From: Candidatus Pacearchaeota archaeon
GTDB taxonomy: Archaea > Nanobdellota > Nanobdellia > Pacearchaeales > GW2011-AR1
NCBI GenBank assembly: GCA_018303755.1
Contig: JAGVXO010000006.1
Location: forward strand, 1,140-65,139
Length of the DNA stretch: 64,000 bases
Direction: 5' to 3'
Made by a program: the position numbers and the translations under genes. Under the pieces are notes generated by a model. It had not been told where the DNA came from, searched no databases, and saw only the letters and a list, made by a program, of their open reading frames with translations. This document shows, piece by piece, positions 3,261 to 57,332 of the stretch (position 1 is its first letter; each line of letters starts with the position of its first letter).

Positions 3261-3414
3261 ATGCCCACTCTGCTCGCTTATCTATTTTTTAAATCCCTAA
3301 CCTGCATGGCCTCTTGATTTTTATGCTTTTAATTAGTATTAAGAATAAAGGAAAATGGGAATTGAAAAGATATTGAATTAGGGAAAATTATAAGATGTTA
3401 GCAAAATAGATTAT
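3261..3414 (+). repeat. IGR3B full copy, forward
   Basis: The A block is degenerate (GCTCGCTTATCTATTTTTTAAATCC). The C block is GAAAAGATATTGAATTAGGGAAAATTATAAGATGTTAGCAAAATAG. Confidence 0.7.
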
Positions 3415-3490
3415 TGGCTCGGCTTCGCCTCGCTCGCTTGTTTTGCAAATCCTCAATTTGTTTGGACATTGATTATTTGGATTTTTTAAA
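3415..3490 (+). repeat. IGR3B partial copy (A/B blocks), forward, tandem to the previous copy
   Basis: TGGCTCGGCTTCGCCTCGCTCGCTTGTTTTGCAAATCC...; it abuts the HerA-like gene's stop. Confidence 0.6.
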
Positions 3491-4798
3491 TCATACTCTT
3501 TTTTCAACTTTAACAGCTGTCGGCGCTTCACCGCCGTGCCATGTAATTCTTGGCTTTATTCTCATTGGATACAATCTTTCTGAATTGTCATCTAAGATTA
3601 TTGCGCTTCCTTTTAGATTAGGAAGATTGTCAATTTCTTGTTTTATGCTTTCGAGAAGATAAGTTTGCATTATTTCATTCAGCGCAGAAATATCAGGCTG
3701 TGCAGTAACTCTATGTGAAATAACAACATCTGCCTGAGTCATAACATCTCCATGTATCTGCCCTGGTTGCTGTGTTGCTAAGACAACAGAGATTCCTGGC
3801 TGTCTTCCCTCTCTAAGAAGCTGTATAAGTGCGTCTGATGCAGGAGTTTTGCCTGTTTTAGGAAGAAATTCATGAGCCTCGTCAATAAATATCCAAGCCA
3901 TTGGAACGTCTCTCACAGGCTTGAAGGAAAGATAATCAACTCCATGCCTGACTGCTTCTACTTCTTCTGCTTTTCTTGAGTTCATTCTTTCGTTGAAAAT
4001 TTTTCTTGATAATAGTCCTATGACAAGCGCCCTTACATTAAAAGCACCAATAGAGTTATAGACACTTAAATCGATAATTGTCGGCTCTCCTGATTTCAAT
4101 AACTCTTTAACACTAATGGGTCTAATGTTGCCTTCTGCAAAAACTCCCCATGTGCGCGCACTTTCAAAAAGCCCGATTGCAGAATTTTTTACATCAGAAC
4201 TATACTCTGTTTCTTTTTTTATCAAATCAATAATCTCTAGTATGCTAAAATTTTCTATATTAATATTAAAAAGAACTTTCTGTATTAAAACAGAAATAGG
4301 ATTTGTCATCTCTAATCCAAATATGAGCGTCCAATCCTCTGCTTTCATTTCAGAGACACTTAATGCAAATGATGCATCAACAGGAATTCCTTTTTCAATA
4401 TAATTCTCATAATGCCCGTAGGGAACAAGAACTCTCACAGAAATATTTTCTGGCTTTAAATTCCACTCATCAAGAAGCGCTTTTTCTTTGTTATTCTCAT
4501 ATTTCATTGTCCAGAAAATTCCCATTGTATCAAAAATAATCGGCGTGATATTTTTCCTTGATTCAATAGGAAGCCTTGAAATCTCTTCTGCAATAACTCC
4601 AAGCGAATAGGATTTTCCGCTTCCGCGTTTGCCGGCAACTAAAATTACATGGCTTCGGGCAATATCTAAAAAAATATTATTTGAAAGAGAGGTATACTGC
4701 CCCATTTTAACATAGCCTCTTCCAATTTTTATCAATCCTTTGTCTCCAAATCGCTTTTTGTCAGAATCATCTCTTCCTATAATAATATCATAAGGCAT
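3491..4798 (-). CDS. HerA/FtsK-like P-loop ATPase (DUF87 type)
   Basis: Walker A GKRGSGKSYSLG, Walker B WIFIDEAHEF, and LATQQPG are present. No NurA-like partner is adjacent. Confidence 0.75.
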   Translation of the reverse strand: MPYDIIIGRDDSDKKRFGDKGLIKIGRGYVKMGQYTSLSNNIFLDIARSHVILVAGKRGSGKSYSLGVIAEEISRLPIESRKNITPIIFDTMGIFWTMKYENNKEKALLDEWNLKPENISVRVLVPYGHYENYIEKGIPVDASFALSVSEMKAEDWTLIFGLEMTNPISVLIQKVLFNINIENFSILEIIDLIKKETEYSSDVKNSAIGLFESARTWGVFAEGNIRPISVKELLKSGEPTIIDLSVYNSIGAFNVRALVIGLLSRKIFNERMNSRKAEEVEAVRHGVDYLSFKPVRDVPMAWIFIDEAHEFLPKTGKTPASDALIQLLREGRQPGISVVLATQQPGQIHGDVMTQADVVISHRVTAQPDISALNEIMQTYLLESIKQEIDNLPNLKGSAIILDDNSERLYPMRIKPRITWHGGEAPTAVKVEKRV

Positions 4799-6706: not shown

Positions 6707-6746
6707 GAAAAGATTTTGAATGGATGGAGTTATGGGATGTTTAATA
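6707..6746 (+). repeat. IGR3B C-block fragment
   Basis: GAAAAGATTTTGAATGGATGGAGTTATGGGATGTTTAATA, immediately adjacent to 108-bp repeat copy A. Confidence 0.5.
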
Positions 6747-6848
6747 CTTGTGAAAAATCTCCAATCTTTAGATTGGAGTTAAAATGTATAGATTTTTCCC
6801 GGTTCTCCCAAAACCCAAACACAAACTCCACACTTTAGTGCGGGTATA
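6741..6848 (-). repeat. 108-bp repeat, copy A (last 22 codons of rnp3, stop, hairpin and T-run)
   Basis: It is identical to 57225..57332 at 105 of 108 positions by hand alignment. Confidence 0.9.
6752..6778 (-). terminator. hairpin plus T-run after the rnp3 stop
   Basis: On the minus strand, CTCCAATCT-AA-AGATTGGAG (9-bp stem) is followed by ATTTTTC, directly after the TAA. Confidence 0.5.
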
Positions 6849-43166: not shown

Positions 43167-43312
43167 TGGCGCTTCGCGCCCGTTTGTTATTTCTTAAATC
43201 CTGTGCAATTTGCATATTGGTTATTCAAATGGTTTAATTTATTTTGATATAAACAGCGCCAAAGAATAAATATTAAATAAGGCAAAGTAGGGTATGTTTA
43301 AAAAATAAAAAA
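43167..43312 (+). repeat. IGR3B full copy, forward
   Basis: TGGCGCTTCGCGCCCGTTTGTTATTTCTTAAATCC...CATATTGGTTATTCAAATGGTTTAATTTATTTTG...AAATAAGGCAAAGTAGGGTATGTTTAAAAAAT. Confidence 0.8.
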
Positions 43313-43387
43313 GAATAGATTTATAATTAACAAAAATAGCATATTTGTATTGGATAAAGAAGAGTTAAATAAAATACCTTCTCTAAT

Positions 43388-43459
43388 GGAGCTGTAGTTC
43401 AATGGTTAGAATGTTGGTCTCCAGAACCAGTGATGGGGGTTCGATTCCCTCCAGCTCCA
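43388..43459 (+). tRNA. tRNA-Trp (anticodon CCA)
   Basis: Hand-folded. The acceptor is GGAGCTG/CAGCTCC, the anticodon arm TTGGT-CTCCAGA-ACCAG, the T arm GGGGG-TTCGATT-CCCTC, and the discriminator A. Confidence 0.9.
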
Positions 43460-43460
43460 T

Positions 43461-43535
43461 ATAATCCTGCGCCCACTTTTTATTTTGCAAATTCTTAATC
43501 TGTTTATTCCTTGGCTCTTTAGATTTTTTAAGATA
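43461..43535 (+). repeat. IGR3B partial copy (A/B blocks), forward, directly after tRNA-Trp
   Basis: ATAATCCTGCGCCCACTTTTTATTTTGCAAATTCTTAATCTGTTTATTCCTTGGCTCTTTAGATTTTTTAAG. Confidence 0.55.
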
Positions 43536-43573
43536 ATATTCAAAGAATAAAAGAAATAGGGGATTTAAAAAAA

Positions 43574-43766
43574 TCCCCTCACCAGGAATCGAACCTGGGA
43601 TCTCTCGGGTTCTGCACGAACATTTGGCTAATCAGGCTTCATTTTTATCCGAATTCGGAACATCTGCCCTAGTTAACTTACAACATCATAAGGAGATGTC
43701 ATAAGAAGAACCATTGGTTCTTTTTATTTCTACAGCCAAGCGCTCTAACCACTGAGCTATGAGGGG
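43574..43766 (-). tRNA. tRNA-Tyr (anticodon GTA) with 120-nt intron at the canonical 37/38 position
   Basis: Exon 1 is 43766..43730 (CCCCTCA TA GCTC AGTGGTTA GAGC G CTTGG CTGTAG). The intron is 43729..43610. Exon 2 is 43609..43574 (C CCGAG AGATC CCAGG TTCGATT CCTGG TGAGGGG A). It has the archaeal-type C1:G72 pair. Confidence 0.8.
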
Positions 43767-43789
43767 ATTATTAAGGATATGAAGCCGTG

Positions 43790-43799
43790 TTTTTAAAAG
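43790..43799 (-). promoter_or_regulatory. candidate TATA box for tRNA-Tyr
   Basis: The minus-strand sequence CTTTTAAAAA is centred about 28 nt upstream of the tRNA 5' end. Confidence 0.35.
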
Positions 43800-43818
43800 T
43801 TATTATTGCTTGAATAAC

Positions 43819-43940
43819 GGCGCGCTGCGGGCGCGCCTTTTTATAATGGCGCTTCGCGCTTGTTTTATTTTTCAAATCTGCTATCCATTCGTACATTGGC
43901 TCTTTAAAATTTTTTAATTGTTAGCAAATTTTCTAACCAT
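43819..43940 (+). repeat. extra GC hairpin plus IGR3B partial copy (A/B blocks), forward
   Basis: GGCGCGC-TGCGG-GCGCGCC (43819..43837) is followed by TTTTTATAA. Then comes TGGCGCTTCGCGCTTGTTTTATTTTTCAAATCTGCTATCCATTCGTACATTGGCTCTTTAAAA. Confidence 0.75.
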
Positions 43941-44050
43941 ATCAAGATATCAAAATTTCTTTTTAATTAAAAATAGAAAGTATTAAAAATGGCAATTTTA
44001 TAATATTTTAGGGTGAGGTAAAGAATCGCCTTAGAATTATAAAGAATAAA

Positions 44051-44368
44051 ATGAAAACTAAATTGACTGAAAGACATTATCAAGTTATTGAAAAGGATGA
44101 AAGCGGATTAATCCCTGCTTGGGTAGACCATATAGTCTATAACCCAGAAGGTATTCTCACCGCAGATAAGGGAGCTTATAAATTTGGTTTTTTTCCAAAG
44201 CATCCAAAAAATTATTCCCCACTTCCATCCCGTAGTGATAGAATATCATGGAAGCATATTCATGAAGAAATAAATAAGGATGGAGAGAGACAATTTCCAA
44301 AATTCACTCCTGAAGAAGTTTTAAGGATTCTTAGTATGTTAGAATTTTCTTTAGTCGATTCTAAATAA
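44051..44368 (+). CDS. hypothetical orphan protein
   Basis: 105-aa ORF lying between an A/B-block fragment and a C-block fragment of the repeat family. Confidence 0.5.
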   Translation: MKTKLTERHYQVIEKDESGLIPAWVDHIVYNPEGILTADKGAYKFGFFPKHPKNYSPLPSRSDRISWKHIHEEINKDGERQFPKFTPEEVLRILSMLEFSLVDSK

Positions 44369-44400
44369 AGAAAAGGGGATTAAAATAATAAAACACCCCT

Positions 44401-44466
44401 GAAAAGATGTAAAATGTGGGAAAAGAATGGAATGTTAAAAAAATTAATATTGTGCTCGCCGCCTTA
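44401..44466 (+). repeat. IGR3B C-block fragment plus the start of a further A block, forward
   Basis: GAAAAGATGTAAAATGTGGGAAAAGAATGGAATGTTAAAAAAATTAATATT followed by GTGCTCGCCGCC. It abuts the stop of the gene at 44478. Confidence 0.7.
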
Positions 44467-44477
44467 GAAAAATAAAA

Positions 44478-45881
44478 CTATTCAGAAACATTCTTTGGCT
44501 CATTTATAAAAAATGCTCTGTTTGAAGATGCCTCATGCATTTTCCCGTTTTTCTCGTACAAAACATTTGCAACAGGAAGCTCAAATCTTCCGACGATTTT
44601 AAGCTTTGAATATACAATATAAGTAAATATTCTTTCCTCTCCGTCGCCAAGATGATTAATAGTCCATTTTATTCTTCCGCTTGTTTTGTCAATGCTCGAA
44701 GGTGCAGTTCCGTACTGCTCATATAATTTTGTCATTGCAGGAACTCTGTCATAAATAGAAACTTTTTCAACGAATTTTTTCGCCTTCACATGCAAAGTAA
44801 CTTTCAGTGCAAAATCATTTGATTTGGTTTTTATATAATTCACCCTTTTAGTTATAACAACATATTTTGACATATAAGCATTAAAAATCAAAGTTATTGC
44901 TGCTATAGTCAAAATAAGAAGAAGCGGAAACATCCAGTTGGTTGTCATAACAACATTAAGCGATTCAGCCGGCTGAAGTTCTTTTTGCCAGGTATAATAA
45001 ACAAAAAATCCCTTTCTCTCACTTTTTACAGGTTCGGGAGACAATGTTGTAAAAAGGCGCGAAACAATATTCTTTCTTGCACTTGCCTCTGCTATTGTAG
45101 GAACATTGCCCTCGTTCTTTTTTTCTATTAAATTCTTATGAACTATTATTCCTGAGCTTGATTCTGATGTAGATATTCCGCTTTTTTCAAGAATCTTCAC
45201 AGGCGACTTTACAATGCCTTTTCTTCCGTCAATAGTATATTCTCCAGATAAAGAATATTCCCCATAAACAAGCTTCTTTAATTTTTCGCTGTTAATCTGA
45301 AGATGAACCTCTTTTTTTTCATATGGCTTTAAAGAAACAACTTGTGTCTGAGCATCCATAAACTCTGATGAGAAAACAAATTGTATACTATCATAGGTGC
45401 TGTCTTCTACATTATATAAATAGATTTTTACCTTGTCTGAATCGAGATTTATATTATCTGCACTCAAATCAAAAATCTCTGAAAAATCAACAAGCTTTAT
45501 CTCTATTTTTGTTTTTACATATTCTGAATTGTCTATTTTTGAGAAATAAAGCGGCACAGAAAGATAACCGACATTCTTTTTTATATTTTCAAGGGGCATA
45601 AATTCAAATCGAATTGTTTTTGTTTCTCCATATCCAAGGGAAAAGTTTTCAGGGGTTATTTTAAATCTTTCAAAGGTATATATTTGAAATGTGTCTGCAT
45701 AATCATTATTTTTCAGAGTAATATCAAAAACAGCAGGGGCATTTCCGTCATTGATTATTGTAGGAGCAACAGGCACAGCAGTTATTTCAAGATTAATCGC
45801 GCTTGCAAATGCAAAAGAAAATACCAGTAATGCAAAAATTGCAGATACTCCAAACACCCTTTTTAAATTATTCATATTCAA
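44478..45881 (-). CDS. surface/membrane protein (signal peptide, beta-rich ectodomain, one internal TM)
   Basis: The signal-like N-terminus is MNMNNLKRVFGVSAIFALLVFSFAFA. The TM segment is WMFPLLLILTIAAITLIF. Confidence 0.55.
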   Translation of the reverse strand: MNMNNLKRVFGVSAIFALLVFSFAFASAINLEITAVPVAPTIINDGNAPAVFDITLKNNDYADTFQIYTFERFKITPENFSLGYGETKTIRFEFMPLENIKKNVGYLSVPLYFSKIDNSEYVKTKIEIKLVDFSEIFDLSADNINLDSDKVKIYLYNVEDSTYDSIQFVFSSEFMDAQTQVVSLKPYEKKEVHLQINSEKLKKLVYGEYSLSGEYTIDGRKGIVKSPVKILEKSGISTSESSSGIIVHKNLIEKKNEGNVPTIAEASARKNIVSRLFTTLSPEPVKSERKGFFVYYTWQKELQPAESLNVVMTTNWMFPLLLILTIAAITLIFNAYMSKYVVITKRVNYIKTKSNDFALKVTLHVKAKKFVEKVSIYDRVPAMTKLYEQYGTAPSSIDKTSGRIKWTINHLGDGEERIFTYIVYSKLKIVGRFELPVANVLYEKNGKMHEASSNRAFFINEPKNVSE

Positions 45882-45969
45882 TTGAATGGTGTTCTATATA
45901 TAAACATTTTGATAGGATATTTTAAGAGTTTTTAACCTTTAAGAATGATGACACTTGAATTTATCAAGA

Positions 45970-46470
45970 TTATTTCATCCCCTCAATTGTCAGAAATGCC
46001 TTAACCTGCTCTGTTATTTCATCAACATCGCGGATTAGTTTTATCTCGTATTTTTTCATTGTGCCTTTAATTATATACTCATCATAAATTCCTCTTAAAA
46101 ACTTCATAAATGGATTTACATCCCATCTGCTTCCCCAGTCTCTTATCAAAGTTCCTGAAATCTTTACTTCAAATGTTCCCTGATTTGTTTTTACCTTTTT
46201 CCCGTTTTTTTCAACTTCGACTGACTTCATGCCGATTATTCTCCATGCAAGTTTCATTTGATTCTTGAAATAATCCGAAATTTTTTTATTTGCCTCCCAG
46301 ACAATTTCAATTTTCTTTGAATCTCCTGTCACTTCTTCTGAATATTTTTGCTCTTCAACATCATATTTCTCCTCAACAAGCCACCTGTAAACAAACTGAT
46401 AAACTTCCTTAAAATCAAACAAGCCGGACATTTTAACTTTCTGTTCAAATATCTTCTCTTTTTCAGCCAT
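45970..46470 (-). CDS. hypothetical protein
   Basis: 166-aa ORF with no recognisable motif. Confidence 0.5.
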   Translation of the reverse strand: MAEKEKIFEQKVKMSGLFDFKEVYQFVYRWLVEEKYDVEEQKYSEEVTGDSKKIEIVWEANKKISDYFKNQMKLAWRIIGMKSVEVEKNGKKVKTNQGTFEVKISGTLIRDWGSRWDVNPFMKFLRGIYDEYIIKGTMKKYEIKLIRDVDEITEQVKAFLTIEGMK

Positions 46471-46561
46471 AAATTAAATACATAAATGGGATATATAAAG
46501 TTTATCCAAGACTGCCAATTTAAAGGTGCATAAAAACAATCAAGGTAAACTTTATTTATCA

Positions 46562-46650
46562 GCCATGCTCCCTGTTTTATTCTGCAAATCTGCTAACTGT
46601 GAGTACATTGGAATTTTCATATGGGCATAATATTCAAATTCAAAAGAGAG
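46562..46650 (+). repeat. IGR3B partial copy (A/B blocks), forward
   Basis: GCCATGCTCCCTGTTTTATTCTGCAAATCTGCTAACTGTGAGTACATTGGAATTTTC. Confidence 0.65.
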
Positions 46651-47628: not shown

Positions 47629-47670
47629 GTGTTCCATCGATTCTCTCATGCGCCCACCGAGAATCGAACT
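47629..47670 (-). repeat. 42-bp duplicate of the tRNA-Gly 3' end (22 nt) plus trailer (20 nt)
   Basis: It is identical to 47742..47783. It lacks the 5' T-stem strand, so it is a fragment and not a tRNA. Confidence 0.85.
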
Positions 47671-47761
47671 TAAAAACCACCTGCGGGTTTTTATAATCCT
47701 GCATGTGTGATTTAGTTTTCCTATCCTGCATGTGTATTTGAGTGTTCCATCGATTCTCTCA

Positions 47762-47832
47762 TGCGCCCACCGAGAATCGAACTCGGGTCGCCTCGTTGGC
47801 AACGAGACATTCTACCATTAAACCATGAGCGC
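47762..47832 (-). tRNA. tRNA-Gly (anticodon GCC)
   Basis: Hand-folded. The acceptor is GCGCTCA/TGGGCGC, the anticodon arm TCTCG-TTGCCAA-CGAGG, and the T arm CCGAG-TTCGATT-CTCGG. Confidence 0.9.
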
Positions 47833-52464: not shown

Positions 52465-52998
52465 ATGGTAGCATTAAGAAAAGCATGTGCATACTCAAAG
52501 AAATACACACGCCCTTATACAAGAATATCAAAGAAAAAATCAAAAAGTTTTATAAAAACAGTTCCGCAGATTAAAATTCCAAAATTTACTGCAGGAATAA
52601 AAGCAAAAGCAGGCAATTTTGAATATACTATTTCTCTTGTAAGCACTGAAAAAATTCAGGCAAGGGATAATGCCCTTGAAGCATCAAGGCAGTATGTTAC
52701 AAGAGAGCTTGACAAACTTATTCCAGGGCAGTTTTATCTTCAACTAAGTGTTTATCCGCACCATATTTTAAGAGAAAATAAAATGCTTACAGGAGCAGGA
52801 AGTGACAGAATGCAAACGGGAATGCAGAGGTCTTTTGGGAAAACAATAGGCAGAGCTGCGCTTATAAAACCTGGACAAAGGATTTTTACAGCAATGGCCT
52901 CTGGAGACAAAAGCATAAGAATAATCAGGGCAGCGTTTAATGCAGTAAAATCAAAGCTTCCTGGAAGGACAACAATTACGCTTGTGAAAAACCAGTAA
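52465..52998 (+). CDS. rpl10e: 50S ribosomal protein L10e (uL16)
   Basis: MVALRKACAYSKKYTRPYTRISKKKSKSFIKTVP...GAGSDRMQTGMQRSFGK. Confidence 0.9.
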   Translation: MVALRKACAYSKKYTRPYTRISKKKSKSFIKTVPQIKIPKFTAGIKAKAGNFEYTISLVSTEKIQARDNALEASRQYVTRELDKLIPGQFYLQLSVYPHHILRENKMLTGAGSDRMQTGMQRSFGKTIGRAALIKPGQRIFTAMASGDKSIRIIRAAFNAVKSKLPGRTTITLVKNQ

Positions 52999-53010
52999 AA
53001 TTTTTAATAT

Positions 53011-53155
53011 ATTTATTCTGCAAATCTGTGAACTTATTAATATGCTTGAATTTATACAATTTAATATGGAATAAGATTAATTGAAAAAATAAAGACAAAC
53101 TAAAAAAAGGTAAAATGTGGGGAGAAATTATGGGATGTTAGAAAAATTTATTTTA
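53011..53155 (+). repeat. IGR3B copy lacking the hairpin, forward, unit 1 of a 3-unit tandem array
   Basis: ATTTATTCTGCAAATCTGTGAAC...GGTAAAATGTGGGGAGAAATTATGGGATGTTAGAAAAATTTATTTTA. It starts 13 nt after the rpl10e stop. Confidence 0.8.
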
Positions 53156-53305
53156 GTGCGCTTCGCGCTTGTTTTATTTTTCAAATCCAACGCCATTTGT
53201 ATATTGGTTCTTCAAATGCTTTAATTTATATTTAATGAAAAAATAAAGTGCAATTTAAAAAACATTAAACAAGGAAAGTTATTGGATGTTAACAGAATAA
53301 ATATA
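53156..53305 (+). repeat. IGR3B full copy (subtype 1), forward, unit 2
   Basis: GTGCGCTTCGCGCTTGTTTTATTTTTCAAATCC...TATATTGGTTCTTCAAATGCTTTAATTTATATTTAATG...GGAAAGTTATTGGATGTTAACAGAATAAATATA. Confidence 0.85.
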
Positions 53306-53475
53306 GTGTTCGCTTCGCTCACCTATCTATTTTGCAAATCTCTAATCTGTTTATACATCAATTAATTTATATTCAAGTCATTTAATTTATAACAATAAAG
53401 AAGATTATGTAAAAATAAACCTTCAAGGAGAAAATGTAAAATAAGGAAAAGTAATGGTATAGTGGAAAAATATTC
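53306..53475 (+). repeat. IGR3B full copy (subtype 2), forward, unit 3
   Basis: GTGTTCGCTTCGCTCACCTATCTATTTTGCAAATCTCTAATCTGTTTATACATCAATTAATT...CCTTCAAGGAGAAAATGTAAAATAAGGAAAAGTAATGG. Confidence 0.85.
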
Positions 53476-53516
53476 AACCTAACAAACTTTATATATCCCA
53501 ATAATTTAAATTTGAT

Positions 53517-53717
53517 ATGATAAATACAAAAACTTTCTTTATCACGGAAAGTATAATCTCCATCGTGCTTGGGATAATTATAATCTTAAATACAAAAATA
53601 CCAATAATCGGCGCAGTTATTGCAAAAAATGAGCTTTCTCTTCAATCAGGAGTATTGTGGGGGGCTTTTTTCACATTTTTAGGAGTTGCGCTTCTTGTAA
53701 TTGAATTGAAAAGATAA
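53517..53717 (+). CDS. small membrane protein
   Basis: 66 aa with two hydrophobic helices. Confidence 0.4.
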   Translation: MINTKTFFITESIISIVLGIIIILNTKIPIIGAVIAKNELSLQSGVLWGAFFTFLGVALLVIELKR

Positions 53718-57194: not shown

Positions 57195-57224
57195 CTTGAT
57201 GAAGTGCTTGATATTTTTTAATGA

Positions 57225-57332
57225 TTAATACTCGTGAAAAATCTCCAATCTTTAGATTGGAGTTAAAATGTATAGATTTTTCCCGGTTCTCCCAAAACCC
57301 AAGCACAAATTCCACACTTTAGTGCGGGTATA
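57225..57332 (-). repeat. 108-bp repeat, copy B (intergenic, downstream of ppsA)
   Basis: It is a near-identical copy of 6741..6848. The rnp3 reading frame is retained only as a 23-codon stub behind an upstream stop. Confidence 0.9.
57237..57262 (-). terminator. same hairpin plus T-run within repeat copy B
   Basis: The sequence is identical to 6752..6778. Confidence 0.35.

Follow-up and report, generated by a model that had tools for sequence, protein, structure and literature searches.

Co-oriented head-to-tail arrays of unrelated units in an intergenic repeat family of a Pacearchaeota archaeon

The DNA considered here, referred to as the window, is a stretch of 64,000 nucleotides (contig C6, JAGVXO010000006.1, positions 1140-65139) from the genome assembly GCA_018303755.1 of a Candidatus Pacearchaeota archaeon, which comprises 769 kb in 36 contigs with 32% G+C and is 82% complete. 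In this genome a short, non-coding intergenic repeat is found as solitary units and in head-to-tail arrays, three of which reside in the window (denoted 3k, 34k and 53k after their positions; Table 1). By its rpl10e, gene content and size, the genome agrees with a DPANN archaeon. The arrays are genuine and, in statistical terms, a striking feature of the repeat family. Neighbouring units are always direct and in register, and they are unrelated copies; only tracts shorter than a unit have been shared recently, and there is no target duplication. A preliminary description of the window had held that a composite of two units was itself copied between 34k and 53k, and this idea is wrong. The arrangement is a notable detail of a lineage-specific repeat, not a new system.

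The family was delineated with nhmmer, seeded with six units from the preliminary description and repeated over the whole assembly to convergence (cut-off E <=1e-3). The search yielded 227 copies of a ~149-nt unit, i.e., 29.7 kb or 3.9% of the genome, at about 165 intergenic loci; 121 copies are near full length, and there are 127 plus-strand and 100 minus-strand copies. Along the 149 positions of the consensus (Table 1), conserved blocks alternate with variable sequence. The median pairwise identity within the family is ~65%, the nearest relative of each unit is ~78% identical, and identical runs between units are at most 20 nt long. As delimited from these alignments, the unit appears to have three parts: the AT-rich leader (A)TATTG, then a GC mini-hairpin, then a core of ~130 nt with block C at its end. 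The leader is included because the likeness of the closest unit pairs, which ends at block C, begins ~3 nt before the hairpin, and because a weak motif, W-A-W-T-T-G, is kept ahead of the hairpin also in solitary units located within unique DNA. GC-hairpin modules are in addition found genome-wide without a core, or stacked two to four ahead of one (e.g., on contigs C9, C17, C20 and C21). Examples of free modules are GGCTCGCCCTGCGGGCTCGCC, GGCTCGGCTTCGCCTCGCC and GTGCTCGCAATTGCACTCAC, as well as one in the window at 3417-3437. Throughout, free and stacked modules have a single strand sense, with their pyrimidine-pyrimidine mismatches on the same strand as those of the unit hairpin.

Units separated by at most 150 nt were considered to be neighbours and members of one array. 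All 62 such pairs are co-oriented, 48 of them at distances up to 40 nt and 14 at 41-150 nt, with no inverted pair in either class, while the ratio of same to opposite orientation is 4:1 at 151-400 nt, 13:5 at 401-1000 nt and 56:48, i.e., random, beyond 1 kb. The genome holds 58 arrays (55 dimers, 2 trimers and 1 tetramer), in which 120 of the 227 units are found. Because intergenic regions are short, high adjacency is expected at random; a simulation in which units were dropped into intergenic DNA gave 44 +/- 5 adjacent pairs, ~22 of them co-oriented. Adjacency as such is enriched merely ~1.4-fold over this expectation, and an enrichment of several hundred-fold is rejected by the simulation. 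The same placement predicts 5.6 junctions of 12 nt or less, to be compared with 29 observed. What stands out against chance is thus that neighbours are without exception co-oriented and that the junction is stereotyped. Such absolute co-orientation cannot result from gene context, because units are found in every intergenic context (approximately 80 loci between co-directional, 45 between convergent and 41 between divergent genes) and the orientation bias between co-directional genes is merely 55:25. Unit orientation was correlated neither with GC skew nor with gene-strand balance, as it would be if it reflected the direction of replication. On contig C20 (33 kb, outside the window) all 16 units are co-oriented.

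The junctions were compiled genome-wide, as the preliminary description had called for, and 51 of them were measured. In 19 of these 51 the junction is 4-7 nt long with the consensus (A)TATTG (ATTG, TATTG, TATAGC, TATTGT etc.); a few of 10-12 nt precede a hairpin of the longer type, and the remaining ones, 20-95 nt, consist wholly of one to four extra GC-hairpin modules, each led by TATTG or TAATTTG. Junctions hold family material alone. Units first described as abutting directly are indeed head to tail, but they are joined via an AT-rich spacer of 4-8 nt and never at zero distance. The contrast drawn earlier with CRISPR is upheld: a CRISPR array, in which short (about 23-50 nt) and near-identical direct repeats alternate with unique spacers of similar length, is rejected, as the units are ~149 nt long, ~65% identical and without unique spacers. 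The suggestion that arrays grow at a preferred site, the end of block C, also agrees with the data, i.e., with the co-orientation of every neighbour pair, the stereotyped junction and the lack of relatedness between neighbours described below, which together make the growth directional and in register. In 38% of the arrays the hairpin or more is missing from the 5'-most unit; last units are incomplete in this way in 19% of cases and solitary units in 22% (p about 0.04).

The mean identity of adjacent units is 0.648, compared with 0.651 for all pairs (Mann-Whitney p = 0.54), and the maximum is 0.78. The rank of a neighbour among all copies is uniform (Kolmogorov-Smirnov p = 0.31), and a neighbour is never the nearest relative. 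Because neighbours are no more alike than random units, slippage, which had been put forward as one possible route, is not supported as a recent process. A slippage-made tandem repeat or satellite is likewise rejected, since neighbours are never closest relatives and Tandem Repeats Finder does not report the arrays, which it misses because the units are merely ~65% alike. More generally, the strict head-to-tail order and the exact register are what would be expected from local tandem duplication (by slippage or unequal sister-chromatid exchange), and pervasive conversion could have removed the likeness between neighbours that have since diverged or been overwritten. This explanation nevertheless appears quite improbable, as no excess likeness over random pairs is seen in any of the 62 neighbour pairs, neighbours have different hairpin types and array length does not vary among assemblies.

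Units are mosaic at a scale shorter than their length. Across 6,555 pairs the identities of four segments (hairpin, left body, right body and tail) are uncorrelated, with rho <=0.07. Pairs that are closest in one ~50-nt segment fall back to background in the adjoining one; 23 pairs, for instance, reach an identity of 89% or more over the right body but of 61% over the left body. The segments' variant classes are nearly independent of one another, with Cramer's V of 0.07-0.21, or 0.31 between left and right body. In a scan of all pairs, the 13 strongest recent tracts cover 41-124 positions; none spans a whole unit, and 6 of the 13 end at positions 109-120. Among the ten closest pairs, four reside on the same contig, 8-37 kb apart, where 0.54 would be expected. 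This pattern is what short-tract exchange between copies, i.e., ectopic gene conversion or template switching, would leave behind, rather than whole-element copying.

The idea that a ~330-bp subtype1-subtype2 dimer is the copying unit arose from the resemblance between 34k and 53k. At both loci the order of subtypes is the same, a perfect-hairpin unit (GTG[T/C]GCTTCGCGC) followed by a unit with the GTTCGCTTCGCTCAC hairpin, and the junctions quoted earlier are found verbatim (TTAACAAAACAAATATAGC followed by GTTCGCTTCGCTCAC at 34751-34783, and TTAACAGAATAAATATAGT followed by GTTCGCTTCGCTCAC at 53290-53322). Among arrays with typed hairpins the T1-T2 order is found five times and T2-T1 once, and a unit with the GTTCGCTTCGCTCAC (T2) hairpin is the upstream array member in 2 cases and the downstream member in 14. 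Measured over the profile columns, the first units (34614 and 53156) are 67% identical, compared with the family median of 65% (rank 34%), whereas the second units (34769 and its partner at 53k) share 87% identity and rank third in closeness among 22,241 unit pairs; it is in their second units alone that the two loci are close. The upstream units are at background, 0.66 versus 0.64 expected.

A change-point analysis, in which the background was the family-wide match probability of each profile column, placed the best shared tract from position 147 of the first unit (U1:147) to position 119 of the second (U2:119), with a log-likelihood ratio of +33.9; the start is supported from U1:132 to spacer position 2 and the end at U2:113-121. 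Competing models gave +23.1 (spacer to the end of unit 2), -21.8 (whole dimer) and -44.9 (unit 1 alone). Block C of the second unit falls outside the shared tract, with an identity of 0.69 versus 0.71 expected. The near-identity of the two junctions, although its letters were correctly quoted, is mostly family-wide conservation: the tail and spacer (29 nt) are 72% identical between 34k and 53k, a value that 12% of randomly paired units also reach, and each tail has better matches among several other units. Over 1,420 array pairs the identities of upstream and downstream members are uncorrelated (r = -0.06), and no jointly related pair is found among them. Nor do the hairpin subtypes define subfamilies of units, as the hairpin type does not predict the core (core identity 0.653 for the same type and 0.649 for different types). 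Copying of the dimer is, on this evidence, barely credible. The likeness between 34k and 53k would instead be that of one exchanged tract of ~145 nt, which is among the longest recent tracts in the family.

How, then, might the arrays have formed? We tentatively propose, with considerable doubt, that the dispersal process of the family also places new units, singly and in one orientation, against the boundary of a resident unit, and that later short-tract conversion scrambles the copies. Units would be added one by one, in fixed orientation and register, at the end of block C (...AAAATAA) beside ATATTG and the hairpin, and arrays would grow by the same process that spread the family to its many intergenic loci. 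No target duplication would result from this process, and the strand on which it reads the hairpin is probably a single one, namely that with the G.A/A.G stem mismatches. Afterwards, exchange of short tracts, by ectopic gene conversion or template switching with breakpoints in conserved blocks, would scramble the units, and the 34k/53k tract would be one product of such an exchange. At present the arrays would be stable.

Several observations bear on this proposal. On the plus strand of the unit, the internal mismatches of the hairpins are pyrimidine-pyrimidine in 112 cases and purine-purine in 4, such that the opposite strand carries G.A, A.G or A.A mismatches around GAA loops, of the GCGAAGC type. 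At stem positions 3-13 and 4-12 both pairs are Watson-Crick (G-C/C-G) in 13 units and both are T.C/C.T in 33, with few intermediates. Nearest-neighbour energies barely reflect this strand asymmetry: with DNA parameters the hairpin energies are -3.35 and -3.47 kcal/mol, and the minus strand is the more stable one in 67 units versus 29. Read on the minus strand, the hairpin is located ~6 nt from the unit end. A target-site duplication is absent in 54 solitary full-length units, where the longest common substring of the two flanks averages 4.20 nt, compared with 4.50 +/- 0.13 nt for randomly paired flanks.

The 53k array is inserted DNA. Downstream of rpl10e, relatives, including same-genus ones, carry the same small membrane-protein gene, with a spacer of 22-31 nt in three genomes and 47-294 nt in most others, while the spacer is 518 nt here; the comparison with the three short spacers is the reason for considering the array as inserted. 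The nearest rpl10e among relatives is merely 67% identical, so that the branch leading to this lineage must be long, and for the same reason empty sites are not alignable and spacer length alone can be compared. Within the species, the arrays do not vary among the assemblies compared. From 24 contigs read for each locus, both arrays are base-for-base identical in same-species assemblies, at the 9 places (53k) and 2 places (34k) among the matches listed. The rpl10e gene varies at the single-nucleotide sites 52674, 52803 and 52872 among these assemblies, and the adjoining 465-nt array is invariant there; nor did array length prove polymorphic at either locus in any assembly that was read. At the scale of the population, the arrays are stable. 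Logan contigs gathered at 80% likeness contained other copies of the family and no usable joints.

The family is private to this lineage. Forty relatives gave 0-2 marginal matches each, and none of 39 rpl10e loci in relatives has a unit. Wider searches employed a 20-base pattern that matches 30 copies in the present genome; it gave 24 single chance matches, in unrelated bacteria, among 185,579 GTDB species genomes, and no match in IMG/VR. Literature searches returned no description of such a repeat in DPANN archaea.

A number of points weigh against addition of units at the ends of resident ones. No enzyme was found for it in this assembly, which is 82% complete: Y1_Tnp and TnpB-type domains are absent, and the ends of the IS630-type element are unlike the unit. 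We infer insertion at unit ends from the arrangement, and neither an empty site nor a polymorphic array was found. Pervasive conversion could have wiped out the traces of old local duplications, and homology-driven exchange by itself could hold arrays in register. Upstream and downstream array members do not differ in apparent age and hence do not reveal a direction of growth. Finally, the gene calls, a greedy choice of the longest open reading frames, are crude, which makes the context statistics approximate. As for the enzyme searches, a six-frame search for Y1_Tnp (PF01797) gave no match, with controls detected in 6 of 14 genomes, and the TnpB-type domain is absent from this assembly. A search for Y2_Tnp (PF04986) also gave no match, but its controls were likewise unmatched, and hence the search is uninformative. 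A single IS630-type DDE_3 gene is found at C9:45.7-46.7 kb, and its flanks carry no unit-like ends.

A rather unlikely alternative is that homology-guided exchange between dispersed copies alone builds and resizes arrays, by unequal crossing-over, by integration of unit-length circles into resident units or by replication template switching at conserved blocks, with no need for end-specific insertion. Such exchange would preserve orientation and register automatically, and it would agree with the strong mosaicism of the family, with the enrichment of closest pairs on the same contig and with recent tracts that start and stop in conserved blocks; the 34k/53k tract, for example, stops at ~119, before block C. 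It cannot, however, place units at about 165 unique intergenic loci, for which another mechanism is needed anyway, and it presupposes existing arrays. Moreover, copies that are ~65% identical, with identical runs of at most 20 nt, constitute a poor substrate for recombination, and array length is not polymorphic at either locus in the assemblies read.

The arrays may also be kept by selection, e.g., as stacked terminators or insulators behind genes or as tandem small-RNA genes, which is compatible with the other explanations but improbable as the reason for the arrays. Units lie nearer to stop codons (median 25-39 nt) than to start codons (about 90-105 nt), both unit ends are T-rich when read inward, with a T-run of at least 6 on the minus strand in 48% of the units, and a hairpin followed by TGTTTTATTT scores as terminator-like; the conservation of blocks separated by variable sequence would also fit a function. 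On the other hand, distances to start codons are broad, and units show only a slight preference of orientation with respect to the gene upstream (65:49, p = 0.16, at loci within 60 nt of a stop codon; 55:25 between co-directional genes). The 40 relatives live without the repeat, the region was not found in RNA runs from the same studies, and selection gives no reason for the absence of inverted neighbours. A consensus RNA fold is also lacking on either strand. The mean folding energy of whole units is -11.3/-10.9 kcal/mol, compared with -9.2 kcal/mol for shuffled sequences, and RNAalifold returned 0 consensus pairs on either strand. In the consensus unit, block B (TTATTYTGCAAATC) is similar to block C (GATGTTAGCAGAATAA) when the latter is reverse-complemented, with the hairpin outside that pair, but the folds contain neither a consistent whole-unit structure nor pairing or covariation between the two blocks. 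With Rfam, four tRNAs alone were found in the window, and the region 52950-53550 gave chance-level matches (E 0.18 and 0.39); a known structured RNA is rejected, given that no Rfam model matches the unit and that RNAalifold gives no consensus pairs.

A more far-reaching version of the end-addition proposal, which we regard as improbable, is that the unit is an archaeal mobile element of a new class whose target is its own end, with an enzyme that reads the G.A-mismatched, GCGAAGC-type mini-hairpin on single-stranded DNA. This enzyme would be neither of the Y1, TnpB nor IS630 type, and it would insert units in one orientation behind block C, without target duplication. The exchange of short tracts, through which all copies became mosaics, would be driven by the same machinery or by replication stalling caused by the hairpin. 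If so, a genome of less than 1 Mb would harbor a repeat system that stacks and recombines itself.

Table 1. Units, shared tracts and flanking genes in the window, and parts of the consensus unit
Feature	Coordinates	Strand	Basis or sequence
53k unit 1	53011..53155	+	nhmmer 53011-53147, model 18-146, E 9.6e-12
53k unit 2	53156..53307	+	nhmmer 53156-53300, model 1-148, E 7e-28
53k unit 3	53308..53475	+	nhmmer 53308-53471, model 1-146, E 3.2e-23
34k unit 1	34614..34768	+	nhmmer 34614-34761, model 1-148, E 1.9e-27
34k unit 2	34769..34943	+	nhmmer 34769-34938, model 1-148, E 2.6e-22
3k unit 1	3263..3408	+	full length; nhmmer model 1-147, E 8.5e-21
3k linker and partial unit	3409..3497	+	nhmmer 3425-3497, model 3-79, E 1.1e-8
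Putative shared tract, 34k copy	34762..34908	+	spacer, hairpin and unit 2 body to model ~119; coordinates +/- ~10 nt
Putative shared tract, 53k copy	53301..53444	+	partner of 34762-34908; 89-90% identical in repeat search
rpl10e	52465..52998	+	5' of 53k array; Ribosomal_L16 family, Pfam PF00252 on identical genes of other assemblies
66-aa small membrane-protein gene	53517..53717	+	3' of 53k array; open reading frame, synteny with rpl10e in relatives
Consensus: GC mini-hairpin			GTGCGCTTCGCGCAC
Consensus: T-rich block			TTTTATTYTGCAAATC
Consensus: left body			variable, includes CATTGGTT
Consensus: TA-rich centre			TTTAATTTATATTAA
Consensus: A-rich stretch			between TA-rich centre and right body
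Consensus: right body			e.g. CCAATGAAAAGATGTAAAATAAGG
Consensus: block C			AAAGTTATGGGATGTTAGAAAAATAA

The three head-to-tail units of the 53k array, as previously delineated, were all recovered by nhmmer with E values from 1e-11 to 7e-28. The first is a core alone, without a 5' hairpin, which starts at block B (ATTTATTCTGCAAATC) 12 nt past the rpl10e stop codon (52996-52998) and is followed by the 8-nt spacer TTATTTTA. The second comprises a perfect hairpin, GTGCGCTTCGCGC (53156-53168), a core, the block C variant GGATGTTAACAGAATAA and the spacer ATATAGT; its hairpin and T-rich tail scored as terminator-like on the plus strand. In the third unit the GTTCGCTTCGCTCAC hairpin (53308-53322) has tandem T.C/C.T mismatches, which correspond to G.A/A.G on the other strand, and block C is degenerate (GGTATAGTGGAAAAAT). 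Directly after this array, the 66-aa open reading frame, which is a real gene with conserved synteny, has a TATA-like box of its own (CTTTATATAT) ~25 nt ahead of the ATG. Both units that had been placed head to tail at 34614..34943 were recovered and are complete. The first has the hairpin GTGTGCTTCGCGC (34614-34626), a core, block C GGGTGTTAACAAAACAA and the spacer ATATAGC, and the second the GTTCGCTTCGCTCAC hairpin (34769-34783), a core and block C GGGGATGTTAGAAAAATTA. The third tandem pair, originally given as 3261..3490, is present and in the same orientation, but it amounts to one and a half units: the linker is a longer hairpin module, GGCTCGGCTTCGCCTCGCTCG (about 3417-3437), and the second unit breaks off at model position 79, which coincides with the end of the minus-strand gene 3491-4798.

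Elsewhere in the window, five plus-strand units or fragments lie at 43169, 43467, 43849, 44340 and 46562 (43169-46617), and the first two bracket an intact tRNA gene (43388-43459). An exact direct duplication of 42 nt (47629-47670 and 47742-47783) overlaps the end of a minus-strand tRNA (47762-47832) and looks like an integration scar. A direct repeat of 112 nt with 96% identity (6737-6848 and 57221-57332), the copies of which are 50 kb apart, is unrelated to the unit family.

The genomes of DPANN archaea are thought to be streamlined, and yet ~4% of this one consists of a single private repeat family. The head-to-tail rule, the absence of target duplication, the one-strand hairpins and the mosaicism jointly constrain how the family could have spread and been maintained in an organism that is not culturable. 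They point to an orientation-dependent process, which probably acts on single-stranded DNA, combined with very active short-patch recombination. For annotation, likeness between two loci of the family should be understood as exchanged segments and not as copied composites; trees of whole units are meaningless, and hairpin subtypes should not be treated as subfamilies.

Comparison with known systems helps to place the family. In integrons, gene cassette arrays are strictly co-oriented like the present ones, and the attC sites have a conserved structure with variable sequence that folds better on one strand. Cassettes, however, carry genes and are gathered at one locus next to intI, while this repeat is non-coding, found at about 165 dispersed loci and without a long attC-like hairpin; an integron cassette array is rejected on these grounds, although intI was not searched for. 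Miniature inverted-repeat transposable elements (MITEs) resemble the unit in size (~150 nt), AT-richness, intergenic location and high copy number, and the unit ends are similar to imperfect inverted repeats (TTATTYTGCAAATC ... GATGTTAGCAGAATAA). MITEs insert either way, whereas neighbours here are never inverted, and the ends of the IS630-type element are unrelated. A MITE dependent on a DDE transposase is rejected, as target-site duplication is absent and no autonomous element with matching ends was found in the assembly, which is 82% complete.

Rolling-circle elements (IS91/ISCR in bacteria and Helitrons in eukaryotes) form head-to-tail arrays, in which read-through yields identical neighbours. 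Like these, the unit ends on the minus strand in a short GC hairpin followed by ~6 nt, lacks target duplication, has AT-rich flanks and is found in head-to-tail arrays. It differs in that neighbours are unrelated copies; the Rep/Y2 search was unmatched, but so were its controls. The IS200/IS605-derived palindrome-associated transposable elements (PATEs) of haloarchaea share the absence of target duplication, a strand-asymmetric hairpin and oriented insertion by a short AT-rich motif. A PATE has a sub-terminal hairpin at both ends, while the unit has one hairpin; furthermore, no TnpA or TnpB is found here, and unit orientation does not follow GC skew.

Clusters of repetitive extragenic palindromic (REP) sequences in enterobacteria, also named bacterial interspersed mosaic elements (BIMEs), are mobilised by REP-associated tyrosine transposases (RAYTs, of the Y1 HUH type), and their REPs alternate in orientation. 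The likeness consists of GC-rich imperfect palindromes in AT-richer intergenic DNA, often behind genes and clustered with defined linkers, and of a strand-specific hairpin that is plausibly read as single-stranded DNA. Here, in contrast, all 62 neighbour pairs are direct, as are the stacked hairpin modules, no Y1 transposase is found and each hairpin is attached to a core of ~130 nt; a REP/BIME system with RAYT is rejected, as PF01797 is unmatched and no neighbour is inverted. The BOX elements of Streptococcus pneumoniae are composed of boxA, boxB repeated n times and boxC, where boxB is an internal box of 45 nt. They are not known to have a transposase of their own, and the present family has none either. 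They are, like the present family, short, non-coding, modular intergenic repeats with many dispersed copies and a module that can be stacked in direct tandem. The sequences are unrelated, and here whole units of ~150 nt are stacked, with GC mini-hairpin modules between them, in an archaeal host and as mosaics that are ~65% identical. By analogy, the family works most like modular intergenic repeats such as BOX and BIME and, among oriented, hairpin-reading systems, like IS200/IS605 derivatives, rolling-circle elements and integron attC recombination, which leave no target duplication.

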